In this document: positions 16,868 to 24,000 of the stretch, piece by piece | Numbering within the stretch: position 1 is the stretch's first letter | Layout: every line of letters starts with the position of its first letter | Assembly: GCA_003649205.1 (NCBI GenBank) | Contig: QMRC01000009.1 | Span: 1-24,000 of the forward strand | From: Thermoprotei archaeon | GTDB lineage: Archaea; Thermoproteota; Thermoprotei; Thermoproteales; B15-G16 | Length of the DNA: 24,000 nt | Reading direction: 5' to 3' | Translations under genes and position numbers: made by a program | The notes under the pieces: model-generated | Seen by the model: only the letters and a program-made list of their open reading frames with translations | The model's database searches: none | What the model was told of the DNA's origin: nothing

Positions 16868-17140
16868 TTGCATTTAGTCATGGCACTAGCACTTGGTACG
16901 AAACCATGTCTCAGGTTCATTGAGCACAGGTTCGTACGAAGGAAAGTAGTATCCATAACCGTAGTACCCACAACAGAGAACAAGTTAGCCAGAGCACTAA
17001 TAGCGCTTTCACCTCATACTTTAACACCAATACTAGCAGTACACTATATAGCAACAGGTAATGTACTACCGTTGATAATTATGGTCGTGAACCTTATAGC
17101 GCTCCCTCAAGACGTAGCATTTGCACTAAGACACAAGTGA
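16868..17140 (+). CDS. Small membrane protein with an HExxH zincin-like motif; true start unclear
   Basis: The track ORF starts at TTG 16868, but the frame is open from 16805 and reads ...HGVELLLGIALGFVLHELLHLVMALALG. The TTG is the second Leu of HELLH, so the track ORF retains only LH of the motif. No canonical start codon lies upstream in frame. Confidence 0.4.
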   Translation: MHLVMALALGTKPCLRFIEHRFVRRKVVSITVVPTTENKLARALIALSPHTLTPILAVHYIATGNVLPLIIMVVNLIALPQDVAFALRHK

Positions 17141-17250
17141 TCATGAGCAGAAACCAGCGGATAATGAAGTTGATAATCAGATTTTTCACACTTTAATTAA
17201 TGAGCCCACCTATTCCTTTGTAGGATCTAGCATGAAACCGTGTTCACGAG

Positions 17251-18048
17251 GTGTTGTCATTGTCTACATGGAAGCTCCATAGGTTTATAGGTGAGAAGCT
17301 CCTGGGGTACTCAAATCCTGAAATTGACAAACTGGTAGATTGTGTTACCTTACATGACGTAACTAGATACAATATTGAAGCTCTCGTAAAGGTTGTAGAA
17401 GGTATTGTGTACCCAAGATATGGAGAAATTGGTCTGAAGTACTTCACCCTACATCACTTTCTGGATAGGATAATCGAAATTGAAGTCAAGAAGTACAAAG
17501 ACTACCTCATCTTAAGCTACTACGCTTCTCACATATCAAACTTACCCTTCTCCTTCACTACCTATACTCCTCCCATCTACAGCAGGCCAGAGTACTCTGC
17601 TTGCGGGCTGGTAGAAGATATTATGCTTCGAATTGGTAGGGACCCATGCAACGTATTAACTCTCTTTGTTGCCCGCCCTGAGGAAATTAAGCACATAATC
17701 TACCTTGATTACAGAGGAAGGGTACGTAAGATGAAGCTAACTCGACTAAAGGAAGCTATTGAAAAGCTAAAGCAGCTAGGGTGTTCTCATGGAGATACGG
17801 TCGTGCTGTTAAGAAGAATTATTCGTGAGGTTTTAAGCCTAGTCTGTGGACATATCGTGGCCCTTACGTATCTGACTTTAGTTGACAAGTCGTTCAATGC
17901 GAAGATTCAGAGTAGCTTCATCAAGCACTATCAGCAATACACGCAATATCATGAGCACTTTCGTAGCTCACTACTTCAAGTGCTTTATGCTTTAGCTTCG
18001 TTGTCTGAGAGGGAGATTATGGATGAGTATTGTGGTAAGGATCAGTAG
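17251..18048 (+). CDS. Hypothetical protein
   Basis: 265-aa ORF with ordinary protein-like composition (WKLHRFIGEKLLGYSNPEIDKLVDCVTLHD...). No family recognised with confidence. Confidence 0.5.
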   Translation: MLSLSTWKLHRFIGEKLLGYSNPEIDKLVDCVTLHDVTRYNIEALVKVVEGIVYPRYGEIGLKYFTLHHFLDRIIEIEVKKYKDYLILSYYASHISNLPFSFTTYTPPIYSRPEYSACGLVEDIMLRIGRDPCNVLTLFVARPEEIKHIIYLDYRGRVRKMKLTRLKEAIEKLKQLGCSHGDTVVLLRRIIREVLSLVCGHIVALTYLTLVDKSFNAKIQSSFIKHYQQYTQYHEHFRSSLLQVLYALASLSEREIMDEYCGKDQ

Positions 18049-18566
18049 CTCAGTCTCCTGGAGTACTCTTGAGTTTCACATAAGGACAAGTGAAACTTAC
18101 TGTCTGTAAATACCACGCTCTAGCCACTAAGAGGTAAACTTATCCCCCTTACACACAAGATTAGTAGTAACTTCCTTGAATTGCTTATTTCGAAGATATT
18201 TCTTGGATTAGCTATGGAGCTGAATGTGATTTCTTGGTCGTGCTCTAGTACACAGGAGATTGTCAAGTAGTCAATTGCTATAGCGCTAGTTATCTTGCTT
18301 CCTTTCTTAACTTCACCCTTAGAAATTGACGCAGTCCAAGTAGGGAGTAGTCTTCTACTGAAGTTCTTCACATACCTATGTTGGCTGGAGAATGGAACTG
18401 TGTTTTCACGACAGATTTCAAGTCCTAGGGATGACATTATCAGTACTCTCAGGATAGTAGCTTGCACATACGAAGGCCTTAGTGCTTCCATTAGCTCTTG
18501 CCTCGAATAGGGTATTCTGTTTGAGTTCTTCAGGCACTACATGCGTGTTAGGGAGGTGCTGTGGTT

Positions 18567-18635
<69 letters not shown>

Positions 18636-18646
18636 ACCGTGTCTGT

Positions 18647-18679
18647 ATGCATGTGCAACGTAATGCATATATGCATGTG
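18647..18679. repeat. ATGCAT-based repeat cluster next to the att copy
   Basis: ATGCATGTG at 18647-18655 and again at 18671-18679. Perfect 14-bp palindrome ATGCATATATGCAT at 18663-18676. Confidence 0.6.
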
Positions 18680-18694
18680 ATTCAGGTTGGAATT

Positions 18695-18718
18695 CCTGTT
18701 GGAGTTACTGTTGGAGTT
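18695..18718 (+). repeat. 12-bp tandem direct repeat x2 (CTGTTGGAGTTA / CTGTTGGAGTTC) upstream of the recombinase fragment
   Basis: Read directly: 18695-18706 and 18707-18718 differ only at the last base. Confidence 0.6.
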
Positions 18719-18723
18719 CAGGT

Positions 18724-19287
18724 ATGTGGGGTATTGTGGAGGTGTTGCATGTTATGGATCCTAGCTTAGTGAATATCTCCCTCATTCCTCAGGATGTTAG
18801 GAGGAGGTTGCTTGAGTACGTACTTGCTAAAGGTGTTAGACCTAGTGACCTAGGTTACGATAGGACCTACATCTACAGGGTGAGGAAGGGGTTGAGACCT
18901 GTTACCGATGAGTTGCTTAGAGCTGTACTCAAGTACTTGACAGTTGATGAGTATGTTGAGGTTGTTGGTGAGAAACCACCTGTAGAGGAGGCTACCGTCA
19001 ACGACATAATCAAGGTGATCTCTAAGGCACTTAGAGATCCAGAGTTCAGGAAGATCTTGATCACGTACCTAGAGCGTTACCTAGGTGACTACATTAGGGC
19101 TTGCTCAAGTACGTACACGGTCAGTGAGGAGGATATTGAGTACTTCGTGAAGGTACTTAGGAGTGAAGGTAGGTCGGAGAAGACAATTAGGGAACACCTT
19201 AGGTACCTACGTAGAGCACTCAGCGACTTAGACTTCACACTATCTCCAGAGCCTGTTGAAGATGGCTTTAACCTCCTCGAGGGTTAG
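18724..19287 (+). pseudogene. Tyrosine recombinase/integrase, N-terminal fragment only (HTH-like region plus SAM-like core-binding domain); no catalytic domain
   Basis: VSEEDIEYFVKVLRSEGRSEKTIREHLRYLRRALSDL fits the phage-integrase N-terminal SAM-like pattern. After about residue 177 the ORF reads antisense to the opposing fragment and stops. It lies directly beside the att copy. Confidence 0.6.
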
Positions 19288-19488
19288 TGGTCTGTAGTTT
19301 ACCTTCTCCTGCTCAGGTCTGTACATTCTGAAGCTCTCGTACAGTTGCTTACCTAGGTACGGCTCTCTAGGAGTGATGACTACCTTGATGAACTTCTTAA
19401 GCGCCTTAGTGATGTCCCTAATCACGTACGGACTCTCACCACTGTTAATGAGCCCAGCAACGTACTCCCTAATGTCTTCTGGATACAC
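19240..19488 (-). pseudogene. Second tyrosine recombinase fragment (core-binding domain plus linker), truncated before the catalytic domain
   Basis: EDIREYVAGLINSGESPYVIRDITKALKKFIKVV ... NYRPLTLEEVKAIFN: a SAM-like domain followed by the LT.EEV entry into the catalytic domain, then a stop after NRLWR. The frame is closed 21 nt upstream of its GTG. Confidence 0.55.
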
Positions 19489-19506
19489 ACGCCAGAGAGA
19501 GGAGTT

Positions 19507-20088
19507 ATGTTACTCATGACCAGGCTATACAGCTACCAGGTAGTAATTACGTCGGTAACTGAGATCTTACTAGCAATATACCTACTTAGAGACCTTGGTA
19601 TTAGATTGAGCGACCTATATAGGGATGATGTGAGGAACGTAAGGTGTATTGGGTGGATTGCTCTGCTAGTACTCTTCTGTGAAGGTCTCTTCTTCTTGGA
19701 ATCACTGATCAGTGCTAACCTGTACTATAGTGGTGATGTAGGTAAATACTGGTCATGGTGGTATGACATGATTAAGCACGTACCTCTCTGGGCTAGGTAC
19801 TTCAACGCACTTGCCATACCATTCATATCAGGTGTATGTGAGGAAGTGATTTACAGAGCATATGGAGTAACAGCATTGGAGAAACTGGTAGGATTTAAGA
19901 AGGCAGTAATAATACAGGCAATAGCGTTCGGAGTTTTCCACGTATGGCCACTCCACATATTAATAACATTCACCATAGGACTAGTCTTTGGACTAGTGTA
20001 CGTTAGAAGAAGAAAACTAACAGTACTCACAGTAGCACACACCCTAGTTGACTTAATAGGCTTCTCAACCTTCATAGTACCTAGGTAA
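19507..20088 (+). CDS. CPBP family intramembrane glutamic endopeptidase (CAAX protease / Abi domain)
   Basis: The three CPBP motifs are present: EEVIYRAYG (EExxxR), FGVFHVW (FxxxH) and AHTLVD (HxxxD/N), in a multi-TM 193-aa protein. Confidence 0.8.
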   Translation: MLLMTRLYSYQVVITSVTEILLAIYLLRDLGIRLSDLYRDDVRNVRCIGWIALLVLFCEGLFFLESLISANLYYSGDVGKYWSWWYDMIKHVPLWARYFNALAIPFISGVCEEVIYRAYGVTALEKLVGFKKAVIIQAIAFGVFHVWPLHILITFTIGLVFGLVYVRRRKLTVLTVAHTLVDLIGFSTFIVPR

Positions 20089-20099
20089 GGAGTAGGGAG

Positions 20100-21209
20100 C
20101 TATCTCTTTAATCCCCTCATCGAGAGAATAGGGACCCTACCAAAGAATCCCATAGCAACCTCACTACCTGGTTCTTCAGGAACGAGAATCAACCTAAGAG
20201 CTTTAGGTCTACGAAATCTAGACACTAAAACCGCATAGTCGCGAATTAACATGAAAGTAGCTTCAAACCCCTCACTCATCGATATCGGTACCATATCTAG
20301 ACCAGCAACAGAGATAGAGGAGTAAAACATTAGATCATAAATATTGAGTACACCAGACCTAACGTACTCCTTAAGTACATCATCCTCAGCAAGAGGGAGC
20401 ATCACCTCACAGTAACCAAGACCACCCATGTTCTCAGCAACAGACCTCAAAACCTCATTAAGGAAATGAAGCAAGTAAACACAACCAACACTACCCAACG
20501 GACAACCCCACCACTCAAAAACTCTAGCAACACTCTCACTCAACCAAGGAGAGAGCGAGTAATCAATACCGAAGTGAGGGAAACCAATAGCATTAGCTAA
20601 CCTACTCAAGAACTTCAAAAACCTCTCACCTAACCCCTTAAGGAAACTCTCAAGAGATGAGTAACTAGGTTCAACAAATCGTAAATCACCTGGATAGAGA
20701 AGAGATAGAGAAACAGTATCACGAACATACTTAGTAGCTGGAAAGTACGGAGTTTCATACACATCACCAAACACAATAGCAAATCTCGTACAACCCCGCC
20801 AACCAAGCTCCTCACTAATCCTCCACACAATCTTAGCTACATGAGATAGAGCATCATGAGATAGAGCAAACTCCCACGGAACAAGAACCGAAGTAAAGAA
20901 CTTCTCACTAACAGAAAGACCCTCAACAACCTCACGAACATCAGCACTAGAGAACGAACCCCAGTAAACAGCAAAGTAATCAGCACCCACATCATCACAT
21001 ACCTCAGCTAACCTACTAATCCAATCAACACCACCTAAACCACTAGGAAAGACAACACGATAGGAGAGACACCTAATACCAAACTCACGAACGAACTCAC
21101 GAGCAACATCAATAACCTCACCCAACCTAGACAACAACCTCAAATCACAGTGGAAGCAGAGAGCCCTAATACAGACCATAGAGACCACACCCAAATACTC
21201 AAGGATCAA
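20100..21209 (-). CDS. DUF711 / UPF0210 family protein (short, divergent)
   Basis: Blocks colinear with recalled UPF0210 proteins: CIRALCFH (IRTITL-like), FGIDYSLSPWLSESVARVFEWWG (GIVDLSLAPTP...), GGLGYCEVMLPLAEDDVL (GGLSGAFIPVSEDAGM), SISVAGLDMVPISMS (CSVGLDMIAIPGD), ALRLILVPEEPGSEVAMGFFGRVPIL (AVRLIPV..VGD.VEFGGLLG). The start may instead be Met11 (21179). Confidence 0.65.
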   Translation of the reverse strand: MILEYLGVVSMVCIRALCFHCDLRLLSRLGEVIDVAREFVREFGIRCLSYRVVFPSGLGGVDWISRLAEVCDDVGADYFAVYWGSFSSADVREVVEGLSVSEKFFTSVLVPWEFALSHDALSHVAKIVWRISEELGWRGCTRFAIVFGDVYETPYFPATKYVRDTVSLSLLYPGDLRFVEPSYSSLESFLKGLGERFLKFLSRLANAIGFPHFGIDYSLSPWLSESVARVFEWWGCPLGSVGCVYLLHFLNEVLRSVAENMGGLGYCEVMLPLAEDDVLKEYVRSGVLNIYDLMFYSSISVAGLDMVPISMSEGFEATFMLIRDYAVLVSRFRRPKALRLILVPEEPGSEVAMGFFGRVPILSMRGLKR

Positions 21210-21630
21210 TACCCCTACACTTCATAAACTCAAGAAACCTACCCATAACATTAATAAGTATGTCACACAACGAAGACAACTTCCCATGAATATCAGTAGG
21301 TGAGACATAGACGTAGTTATGAATCAAGATATTACGTAGCTTAACCAACTCAATACATCTACCAACAACATCAGGAGGTAAGACACCATACCTACTCAAG
21401 ATCCTGAAGATGTCAGTATACGACTTAGGAACCTCACAACAGACCCTAGCAACCAAGAACTCACCAACGTCAATCAAGGCCTCAATAGCGACCTCAAGAT
21501 TACGTTCACAAGCATCAACCCTATCCTCACTACTGAGAAACTCCTCAAGAGAAAGCTGGGAAAAGAACCTCAACCTACCAACAGCACGCCAAAACCTCTC
21601 AACTCTAACCCTCACACCTGGAGTAGGCAT
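21199..21630 (-). CDS. hepT: HEPN-domain (DUF86) toxin of an MNT-HEPN pair
   Basis: RxxxxH motif in LVKLRNILIHNYVYV. I place the start at MPTPGVRV (21630); the track extension to 21774 lies inside the MNT gene. Overlaps the MNT 3' end by 26 nt. Confidence 0.75.
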   Translation of the reverse strand: MPTPGVRVRVERFWRAVGRLRFFSQLSLEEFLSSEDRVDACERNLEVAIEALIDVGEFLVARVCCEVPKSYTDIFRILSRYGVLPPDVVGRCIELVKLRNILIHNYVYVSPTDIHGKLSSLCDILINVMGRFLEFMKCRGIDP

Positions 21631-22037
21631 CAAGAACCTCCTCAATAACCCTATTCGAAAACCTCCTAAAAACAGGTTCAAAATCGAGAAACTGATCAAT
21701 AGCATTGAGATAATCATCCCAGAAAACCCCCTCATCCCTACAGAAAACCAACTTACCACAAGAGAAGATCTCATACCTAAGCACAGTATCAGCTAGATCA
21801 ACCGGAATAGCATCTACGTGAACACCAAGAACATCCTCAATAGCAAGACCAATATCCAAAACCCTACTCAAACAATCACCACCACAGTACCTCAACTTAA
21901 TAGCAACATCGACATCACTGTACGGCCTAGCAACACCAAGAGCCCAAGAACCAAAGAGAACAGCATACACAACATCCTCAAACCTAGAACAAACCTCCCT
22001 AATCACAGACACAACACGCTCAAGATCAAGAACCACA
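21605..22037 (-). CDS. mntA: Minimal nucleotidyltransferase (MNT) antitoxin
   Basis: GSxxxGxxxxxSDxD motif: LFGSWALGVARPYSDVDVAI. GTG at 22037 (VVLDLERVV) is preferred. The track start at 22099 would lie 7 nt from the tRNA and run through its putative promoter. Confidence 0.75.
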
Positions 22038-22071
22038 GAGAACCCACCAAAAAGCAGAGAAAGACAAAAAC

Positions 22072-22078
22072 ATAAAAA
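22072..22078 (+). promoter_or_regulatory. TATA-like box (ATAAAAA) upstream of tRNA-Thr
   Basis: Centre is about 32 nt upstream of the mature tRNA 5' end at 22107, compatible with a short leader. Confidence 0.3.
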
Positions 22079-22106
22079 CTCAACCAAAGAACACACCAAC
22101 AGAGAA

Positions 22107-22207
<101 letters not shown>

Positions 22208-22373
22208 CAGGCGTGCAGTTGCTGAACATGTATATGTTGATGAGGATTCATGCAACGTCTCTTAACCCAACCTGAGTTCCTGGACGAGTTCAAAATTGAA
22301 CAGCAATAGAGACGAAGTCGGTAGTCTCGGCACTACAAACCAATAGGAGTGCTGTTCAGAGTTCACAGGGTGA

Positions 22374-22556
22374 TTGGATGTGATTGAGGAGTTTCTTCGG
22401 GAGCTGTTGAGGAGGGGCGCCATAGTACTAGGTACTAGAACGATTGCACGGCAAGGTAAGCGGTACGTCATATACGTGCCTCAGGACCAGAGCACCATAG
22501 CTGAAGCACTTAGAGGTAGCAAGTTCTTACTGGTGCTCATACCGCTAGAAGGATAA
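22374..22556 (+). CDS. Small hypothetical protein (60 aa)
   Basis: ORF MDVIEEFLRELLRRGAIVLGTRTIARQGKRYVIYVPQDQSTIAEALRGSKFLLVLIPLEG, with a TTG start or the GTG at 22380. Small basic protein of the kind common in archaeal extrachromosomal elements; no family recognised. Confidence 0.4.
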   Translation: MDVIEEFLRELLRRGAIVLGTRTIARQGKRYVIYVPQDQSTIAEALRGSKFLLVLIPLEG

Positions 22557-22735
22557 AGAGAGGCGTGAGGGTGAGGGGCTTGGGTACCCGAGGTGTATAT
22601 GGAGACGATACCTTAAAAAGCGTTTATTCGAACTAGCCGAGGTAATTCAAGAGCTTGCTGAAGCACTACTTGAAGGTGATCCTTTAGCAAATGAACTGAG
22701 GCTATGTGCTAGAGAGCTAGCAACCATCCTAAGAG

Positions 22736-23080
22736 GTGTGGGAAATGAAGCAAATGAAACTCAGCAATAACTACCTTAAACGAGCAAATGCTAAGGAGGT
22801 GGCTGAGCATGCCAAGAGCGAGAAACAAGAGAGACCAAGGGTTATCTGGTGCGGACAGGTGATGGCTAGAGATGGGCGAGTATTTAGGTATAGGATACAG
22901 CTAGGAACCAGTAGAAACCTAAGCGCTAACACACTATACCTGCTAATCCAAGAACTGGTGAGGAACGACGATGGTACACAATGGAGCACCATAGCACCGC
23001 CGGTGCGCCTCGACCTTGAGCTCCTACTCAAACTTCACGCCATAATTCACGAGAAGGTGAGAGCCTTGGGATTGAGTTGA
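22736..23080 (+). CDS. Hypothetical protein (element-borne)
   Basis: 114-aa ORF. The start may be ATG 22745 or 22754 rather than GTG 22736. Its stop lies 1 nt before the next start. Confidence 0.45.
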   Translation: MWEMKQMKLSNNYLKRANAKEVAEHAKSEKQERPRVIWCGQVMARDGRVFRYRIQLGTSRNLSANTLYLLIQELVRNDDGTQWSTIAPPVRLDLELLLKLHAIIHEKVRALGLS

Positions 23081-23081
23081 G

Positions 23082-23357
23082 GTGAGTAGGAGAACCAAGC
23101 CCCTATCCTGTCGAGTCTCAGTTGAGGATTTCGAGAGGATATCGAGGATATGCGATGAGCTGGAAATCACTAGGAGTGATTTCGTCAAGCTGGCAATCAT
23201 GAGGTACCTAGCAGATGTACAGGTAGAGAAACCAGAAGTCATGAGGGACCTACTACTAATTAAGTTAGAGCACTTGAGAAGAGAGGAAGAGAAGATATAC
23301 AGAGTATTCAAGATGTTAGTGATGATGAACTTAGGTACAGGGTTGCACCATCTCTAG
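23082..23357 (+). CDS. Ribbon-helix-helix (CopG/Arc/MetJ-type) DNA-binding protein
   Basis: N-terminal RHH pattern: KPLSCRVSVEDFERISRICDELEITRSDFVKLAIMRYL. GTG start. Confidence 0.65.
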   Translation: MSRRTKPLSCRVSVEDFERISRICDELEITRSDFVKLAIMRYLADVQVEKPEVMRDLLLIKLEHLRREEEKIYRVFKMLVMMNLGTGLHHL

Positions 23358-23571
23358 GACTTAGCTATAGCGATATCGCTAGACATGACGTAGTAGCTCA
23401 ATCACCAAGTGGTGAGTTAGTGATTGTTGAGGTTCAGAGGAATGAACAAGTTATTGAAGCTAAAAAGAAAGTTAAGAAAGTAATCATAGTTATTCCAGAT
23501 CTAGGCTCAGGGAAATACGTTGAAGTATGGGGTGAAGAAGAACTTAGAGAATACCTTAGAGGATCTACTTA

Positions 23572-23709
23572 ATGCCTAAGCACATAGTTCATGAGTATTT
23601 AGCTGAGAAGTTCTGTAGATTACCAGCAGACATCATGAAGGACATTAATAACTTCAGAGATGTTATTGGTAAGTGTGAAGAACAATTCAAGCGCTTAATG
23701 CGCCTCTAA
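23572..23709 (+). CDS. Small hypothetical protein (45 aa)
   Basis: Hand-translated as MPKHIVHEYLAEKFCRLPADIMKDINNFRDVIGKCEEQFKRLMRL*. Its ATG overlaps the TAA of the preceding open frame (TAATG). Below the track length cut-off. Confidence 0.35.
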   Translation: MPKHIVHEYLAEKFCRLPADIMKDINNFRDVIGKCEEQFKRLMRL

Positions 23710-23763
23710 GGGCATTTCACAATATTAACAGGATCAGCAGCTCTTAACTTTTCAGTTCAAATC

Positions 23764-23770
23764 TTTATAT
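23764..23770 (+). promoter_or_regulatory. TATA box (TTTATAT) for the glycosyltransferase gene
   Basis: The centre is 27 nt upstream of GTG 23794, consistent with a leaderless transcript. Confidence 0.4.
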
Positions 23771-23793
23771 TGCCCACACTACCTACCAGCTTA

Positions 23794-24000
23794 GTGAAGG
23801 TAAAACTGATCGGTGATTACATGGAGAAGGTAGATGTTGTATTACTTACTTACAATTGCGTAAGCCATTGGCCTGGTAGGAGAGTTCTTGAACTTTGCCT
23901 TCAATCCATAGTAAGTAATATACCGATTAATAAGATCATCATAGTGGATGGTGGTTCTACTGATGGAACTCTAGAAGTTATCTGTAGGTACTTAGATTCT
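23794..24000 (+). CDS. Family 2 glycosyltransferase, N-terminal part (runs off the right edge)
   Basis: Hand translation ...MEKVDVVLLTYNCVSHWPGRRVLELCLQSIVSNIPINKIIIVDGGSTDGTLEVICRYL matches the GT2 N-terminal pattern (V.LTYN ... IIVDGGSTDGT). Start is GTG 23794 or ATG 23821. Confidence 0.7.
   Translation, partial: MKVKLIGDYMEKVDVVLLTYNCVSHWPGRRVLELCLQSIVSNIPINKIIIVDGGSTDGTLEVICRYLDS

Follow-up and report, generated by a model that had tools for sequence, protein, structure and literature searches.

The window analysed here comprises the first 24,000 nt of contig C9 (C9:1-24000) from a 2.07-Mb metagenome-derived draft genome (31 contigs, completeness 93.8%), and positions beyond 24,000 refer to the same contig. 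Two open reading frames, ORF1 and ORF2, converge between a partial copy of tRNA-Thr(CGT) and a block of chromosomal genes that is followed by the intact tRNA gene and by the cargo of a mobile element. Further integrase sequence, a TnpB-like pseudogene and a pyruvate-oxidoreductase region are found downstream of the window (Table 1).

Table 1. Features of the tRNA-Thr(CGT) locus; positions are those of contig C9
Feature	Position	Strand	Description
265-aa ORF in left flank	17251-18048		no family match
Partial tRNA-Thr(CGT) copy, attR-like	18567-18635	-	3' half from anticodon loop plus 24 nt downstream
Spacer, att copy to integrase start	18636-18723	+	repeated ATGCATG motifs
ORF1	18724-19287	+	187 aa; ORF listing
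Integrase piece N	18724-19250	+	residues 1-175; HTH-like N-terminus and first half of core-binding domain
tblastn match, L005 residues 2-173	18751-19263	+	
ORF2	19240-19488	-	82 aa; 3' end overlaps that of ORF1; ORF listing
Junction J1	19245-19250		hexamer TCCAGA; end of N joined to reverse complement of end of M
Integrase piece M	19251-19477	-	residues 176-250, inverted relative to N
tblastn match, L005 residues 164-243	19494-19249	-	
Junction J2	19478-19483		hexamer TCTGGA; reverse complement of start of M joined to DNA upstream of CAAX-protease gene
Chromosomal block carried by large inversion	19484-22106		90% identical in G001, there directly beside pyruvate-oxidoreductase region
CAAX/Rce1-like protease	19507-20088	+	Pfam
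DUF711	20100-21209	-	Pfam
HepT-like RNase	21199-21774	-	Pfam
MNT nucleotidyltransferase	21605-22099	-	Pfam
Intact tRNA-Thr(CGT) gene	22107-22183	+	ARAGORN; Rfam tRNA 71.5 bits
Second att copy, attL-like	22139-22207	+	tRNA 3' half plus 24 nt
Start of element cargo	22208-24000, on to 28011	+	
Cargo genes			small ORFs, RHH/CopG protein, family-2 glycosyltransferase, then piece C, TnpB-like pseudogene and J3; ORFs, Pfam
Integrase piece C	26860-27261, outside window	-	residues ~304-end; adjoins TnpB-like pseudogene
tblastn match, L005 residues 299-427	27249-26863	-	
TnpB-like pseudogene	27262-28011, outside window (as TnpB-related family copy 27243-27964 = L016 9243-9964)	+	between piece C and J3
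Junction J3	28012-28017, outside window		TCCAGA; 3' flank of TnpB-like pseudogene joined to pyruvate-oxidoreductase region

Searched alone against Pfam, ORF1 gave sub-threshold matches to Phage_int_SAM families (E 0.1-0.2) and ORF2 gave no match. Therefore, the family had to be assigned with the help of full-length homologues from related genomes. When ORF1 was searched against 40 of these, its residues ~10-180 matched many open frames of ~410-490 aa with 39-49% identity; piece N is 48-50% identical to full-length homologues. Full-length homologues scored 40.7 and 29.5 bits against PF00589 (cut-off 27.1) and also matched PF16795, and residues 135-204 of the homologue L006 matched PF02899 (25.5 bits, cut-off 22.3). 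The best solved relative is XerA of Pyrococcus abyssi (4a8e), whose core-binding domain aligns to residues 126-226 of the 429-aa full-length homologue L005; the core-binding and catalytic layout as a whole aligns to residues 126-402 of the full-length homologue (E 0.0015). In contrast to XerA, the family carries an additional HTH-like N-terminal region of ~125 residues, is element-borne and targets tRNA genes, and its 40.7 bits lie far below the equivalog cut-off of 220 bits. From these profile matches the family is one of tyrosine recombinases with an extra HTH-like N-terminal region.

We built a family HMM from nine full-length homologues and applied it to six-frame translations of contig 18000-29000. 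It detected piece N in the plus frame 18664-19284 (E 7e-67, profile positions 3-176), piece M in the minus frame 19509-19243 (E 1.2e-16, positions 166-245) and piece C (E 3e-37, positions 300-429), which in addition passed the PF16795 cut-off (28.4 bits, cut-off 27). Similarly, tblastn of L005 against the whole genome returned these three pieces only, and in alignment A1 they occupy columns 7-172 (N), 174-249 (M) and 304-440 (C). The initial annotation had taken both ORFs to be derived from recombinases, and the profile searches agree, since both match one tyrosine-recombinase HMM. It was also right that neither ORF carries a catalytic domain (Pfam search) and that both lose homology at the same point, which we place at TCCAGA 19245-19250, inside the interval 19243-19254 that it had claimed.

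If 18724-19250 is followed by the reverse complement of 19251-19477, a single open frame results that is colinear with the homologues. The boundary lies between residues 175 and 176, where nothing is lost or duplicated. ORF1 ends with ...LSDLDFTLSPE and ORF2 begins with (Y)PEDIREYVAGL..., the read-through from N to M gives ...LSPEDIREY... against ...LEPEGIREY... in a homologue, and the L005 protein reads ...LSELNWVLEPEGIREYIAGL... at this boundary. The last 37 nt of ORF1 (19251-19287) are the antisense of piece M and not integrase sequence, whereas the 82-aa ORF2 is the frame of piece M with a few flanking codons; the true start of piece N is likely the ATG at 18754 (MDPSL...). The SAM-like core-binding domain is shared between the two pieces, N holding its first half and M its second; M also contains the linker and the beginning of the catalytic domain. 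Wherever a related genome has both parts, they are colinear, with M directly downstream on the same strand. Judged by these comparisons, ORF1 and ORF2 are consecutive pieces of one integrase gene, not two genes.

Between the end of M and piece C about 54 residues are absent. Profile positions 246-299, which contain the first catalytic-arginine box (Arg-I, LAExGLRPxE), had no match to the family HMM in contig 18000-29000, the missing residues ~251-303 were not found by tblastn in the whole genome, and when the 118 nt beside J3 were locally aligned as DNA to three homologues, with shuffles as control, nothing emerged. The string VLETVLISEPA, noticed by eye as a candidate for the missing residues by comparison with VLAECGLRPSEPF, was dropped after these three null searches. 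The motifs LRKFFAT and RHY are kept in piece C. No single frame holds a complete catalytic set (Arg-I...Arg-II...Tyr), and the pieces are distributed over both strands. Each of N, M and C is still an open frame; therefore, the rearrangement events are probably recent. The closest homologue of N is L023 with 59% identity in an exhaustive protein search, the relatives of piece C in a metagenome scan reached only 46-53%, and neither search revealed a near-identical intact element with the gene as it was before rearrangement. The only two other integrase genes of this genome (contig C9 at ~66-67 kb, contig C6 at ~48 kb) are intact and belong to other families.

The two att copies form a perfect inverted repeat of 69 nt, the left arm at 18567-18635 being 100% complementary to the right arm at 22139-22207. 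ARAGORN and Rfam missed the partial tRNA copy, which was recognised by eye and through the repeat search. An antisense tRNA 3' half followed by ATGCATG repeats and then by the integrase gene is a geometry shared with the homologous loci L023 and L009, and it is how elements of this family canonically appear when integrated. The ATGCATG-containing repeats, TGTATGCATG / ATCATGCATGG, occupy the same position in the three elements (window 18640-18700, L023 5846-5890, L009 60-110) and are candidate arm-type Int binding sites or shared promoter/operator elements. Neither the same-genus genome G001, which we used for synteny, nor sequencing run X3 contains a counterpart of the cargo, and its depth is almost nil in runs X2 and X3. 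A different route of truncation at a tRNA was seen for another copy of this integrase family, L008 (G012:C14), in which an antisense 3' fragment of a tRNA (…AGPGFEPGSMGPKPSELGYDK…, ~350-410 nt into the upstream stretch) is joined in frame to a gene whose first ~35 codons are missing.

The arrangement of the chromosome before the rearrangement is preserved in relatives. In G001, a single contig covers the sequence corresponding to contig 34688-28012 (92% identity, in descending order) and passes without a break into that of 19478-21335 (90%), with the joint sequence ...GGGAGATCTGGATACATAC..., and homology to G001 starts at 19478. A contig of run X3, from a different metagenome with a relative of ~90% identity, likewise has this joint, connecting contig positions 19484 and 28012 on opposite strands through six shared letters. 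It follows that the present genome has the ~8.5 kb from J2 to J3 in inverted orientation. The inverted segment comprises the CAAX-protease/DUF711/HepT-MNT block, tRNA-Thr and most of the element, and as a consequence the perfect 69-nt att repeat is now inverted. When the inversion is undone, the att copies stand as direct repeats around ~6.6 kb (18636-19477 plus contig 22208-28011), and the order from the partial tRNA copy is integrase start, N, M, TnpB-like pseudogene, C, cargo and tRNA-Thr.

Some details of the flanks were noted as well. The HepT-like RNase and MNT genes (21199-22099) form a toxin-antitoxin pair immediately upstream of tRNA-Thr within the inverted block. The first ATG of the CAAX-protease gene (19507) is ACG in G001, so the real start is probably the ATG at 19516. 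With J2 a mere ~25-35 nt before the start of this gene, integrase DNA has taken the place of the sequence that originally preceded it. For the left flank (17122-18566) nothing comparable exists in G001, where the sequence departs at contig 17122 and an RHH/PIN-like pair occupies the position; this flank may be further mobile DNA rather than the native flank of tRNA-Thr.

The hexamer TCCAGA/TCTGGA is present at all three novel junctions. It has only five copies in 11 kb and a genome-wide frequency of 0.53 per kb; therefore, the position of three breakpoints in this hexamer is not due to chance. Every exchange was conservative, with one hexamer left per junction and no base lost or gained.

Taken as a whole, what remains here is the scrambled integrase pseudogene of a tRNA-Thr element that is itself a locked-in fossil. 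With high confidence we favour a history in which an element entered tRNA-Thr(CGT), its integrase gene was damaged and the gene was then scrambled by two conservative inversions. A mobile element of ~6.6 kb would have integrated into the 3' half of tRNA-Thr(CGT), carrying a tyrosine integrase of ~430 aa with HTH, core-binding and catalytic domains that started ~90-120 nt from att and read inward. The first damage would have been a TnpB-like insertion together with a deletion that removed residues ~251-303. One inversion, between TCTCCAGA (codons 173-175) and the inverted copy TCTGGAGA (codon ~250), would have flipped the 227 bp of piece M, and another, between the site at codon ~250 and an intergenic TCTGGA between the pyruvate-oxidoreductase genes and the CAAX-protease gene, would have flipped ~8.5 kb. 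Either order of the two would give the observed arrangement, and illegitimate insertion at the hexamer followed by an attP x attB inversion would be a topologically equivalent route. Together, the two inversions would explain why N and M converge on one junction, why piece C lies 8 kb away on the other strand and why the att copies are inverted. Since the att copies are inverted, the element cannot excise. Two ancestral adjacencies are established: the end of N bordered the start of M, and the chromosome was joined as in G001. The end of M, by elimination, would formerly have adjoined the flank of the TnpB-like pseudogene; no integrase-like sequence was detected in the 47 nt next to J3. As mechanism we consider recombination or replication template switching at a microhomology of 6-8 bp most likely.

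Alternatively, a recombinase could have catalysed secondary-site recombination at three pseudo-core sites that share the 6-bp overlap TCCAGA, one of them inside the integrase's own gene. The enzyme would have been the element's own integrase before its death or one of the two other tyrosine recombinases of the genome. Three conservative exchanges are what staggered cleavage within a shared overlap would leave behind, and the site bordering the end of M (CTCCAGAGCC) agrees in 9 of 10 positions with the 3' end of the tRNA in att (CTCCAAAGCC). A precedent exists in the low-specificity integrase Int-pTN3 (PMC5495485, PMC8371274), which inverts Thermococcus chromosomes (PMC5495485; PMC8371274, section 'Chromosomal inversions'). 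However, the reported activity of Int-pTN3 needs identical segments of at least 104 bp and not 6 bp. Moreover, the flanks of the three sites lack convincing inverted binding-site symmetry, the likeness to att was noticed post hoc, is weak for two of the three sites and was estimated not to be significant after multiple comparisons, and the Arg-I box would already have been gone if the TnpB-like insertion came first. We therefore regard catalysis by a recombinase as unlikely.

Much less credit is due to the proposal of the initial annotation that an inversion had cut two different co-oriented integrase genes, so that their N-terminal halves converge here and their C-terminal halves diverge elsewhere. 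A rearrangement breakpoint and an inversion are indeed present, and both ORFs end at the same point; yet what meets there is residues 175 and 176 of one protein, and N and M are exactly complementary. ORF1 has the HTH-like region ascribed to it and only the first half of the core-binding domain (alignment A1), and ORF2, which had been taken for a second, different copy of this domain, is its other half (A1, PF02899, 4a8e). The similar motif in helix-rich segments of both ORFs (EDIEYFVKVLRSEGRSEKTI / EDIREYVAGLINSGESPYVI), which could suggest two genes, turned out to be an internal pseudo-repeat that is arranged in tandem in every full-length homologue. In place of the expected reciprocal junction of divergent C-terminal halves, the genome search found a single C-terminal piece of this family, beside the TnpB-like pseudogene and without an abutting integrase half. 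Short stand-alone proteins are not a conserved form either: the matches in the 40 genomes are mostly frames of ~410-490 aa with N and M colinear, and the short proteins in the database that match N are scattered in length, as fragments would be.

Run X1 is probably the source sample of the genome, and its Logan contigs would then represent the same data processed by another assembler. They span J1 and J2 (contig 18606-22168, 3563 nt) and J3 (contig 27663-29589, 1927 nt) with 0 differences and at an even depth of ~20x; they end at both 69-nt arms, and the orientation of the 3.5 kb between the arms is that of the original assembly alone. Although the genome is a metagenome-derived draft in 31 contigs and assemblers can turn a segment around at a 69-nt inverted repeat, it is hardly conceivable that chimeric reads, amplification or a misassembled bin created the inverted joints, as k-mer assemblers are not misled by 6-bp repeats, all three junctions recur in these long contigs, no contig with the ancestral joint was seen among the Logan contigs of X1, which drop rare variants, and the large inversion has left both of its reciprocal products.

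We also considered a programmed invertible switch of the Hin/Fim/shufflon type and rejected it. The X1 contigs, which drop rare variants, show one form only, the inverted repeats measure 6-8 bp, and M is colinear with N wherever related genomes have both parts. A role of the TnpB-like neighbour as a multicopy active IS that drives inversions was rejected as well. The copy on contig C9 is 5'-truncated and frameshifted, and its one paralogue is distant (30-37% aa identity). The latter is full-length (363 aa; contig C20:10045-11133, L022 1048-2133, minus strand), scores below the cut-offs of TIGR01765 (40 bits, cut-off 47.25) and TIGR01766 (22 bits, cut-off 32) and has no Pfam match. This family is not known to make inversions, which we also counted against such a role. 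Read by eye, the paralogue contains the RuvC-like motifs GLDLN, FENL and DRHMASA; the family appears as a TnpB-related family of ~360 aa with RuvC-like motifs and without the zinc finger.

The scrambled element can be compared with known integrative elements of archaea. Like the non-partitioning elements of the pNOB8 type, it targets the 3' half of a tRNA gene, has a duplicated att of tens of nucleotides with the integrase gene beside one copy and att outside the reading frame, and carries small ORFs, an RHH protein and similar genes as cargo. This likeness is one of organisation; the best profiles here are the generic Phage_integrase, PF16795 and XerA-like ones. In contrast to the pNOB8 type, the integrase gene has been broken into three pieces and lacks ~54 residues, the att copies form an inverted and not a direct repeat, and the element is a fossil.

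For the 'suicidal' integrases of the SSV type it was described that integration splits the gene into int(N) and int(C) (PMC7253208, PMC8371274). Separated N- and C-terminal integrase pseudogene pieces at an integrated element are found here too, and piece C matches PF16795, the archaeal phage integrase family. We considered such a partition, as piece N adjoins the tRNA fragment, and rejected it with att lying outside the reading frame, 88-118 nt upstream of the start codon (18724/18754). Unlike in SSV-type partition, the split points are at TCCAGA microhomologies and not at att, one piece is inverted, and close homologues beside att copies (L009, L023) have intact N-termini. The breakpoints 19245-19250 and 19478-19483 contain no tRNA-derived sequence.

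The inversions of TKV2/TKV3 and of Int-pTN3 (PMC5495485) share with the present case that one inversion end lies in the integrase gene of an integrated element and that neighbouring chromosomal genes were rearranged. Those events involve paralogous elements (TKV2/TKV3, homologous) or identical segments of at least 104 bp (Int-pTN3), whereas here 6-8 bp were used, the inverted segments measure 0.23 kb and 8.5 kb and a second copy of the element is absent.

For annotation, these results mean that the ORFs 18724-19287 and 19240-19488 are pieces of one pseudogene and not two genes. The locus is a case of ordinary genome decay with unusually clean breakpoints. If secondary-site recombination were nevertheless true, a second archaeal lineage, outside the Thermococcales, would have an element-borne integrase that reshuffles host DNA away from att, and the enzyme would also have destroyed its own gene. 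On the preferred history of two microhomology-mediated inversions, the locus illustrates in fully resolved form the way in which an integrated archaeal element is fixed: its integrase gene was cut at repeats of 6-8 bp, its att sites were inverted and excision became impossible, and a block of host genes and a tRNA gene were flipped along with it. Moreover, its base-perfect reciprocal junctions offer a test case for the contributions of host repair, template switching and recombinases at very short homologies in hyperthermophilic archaea.
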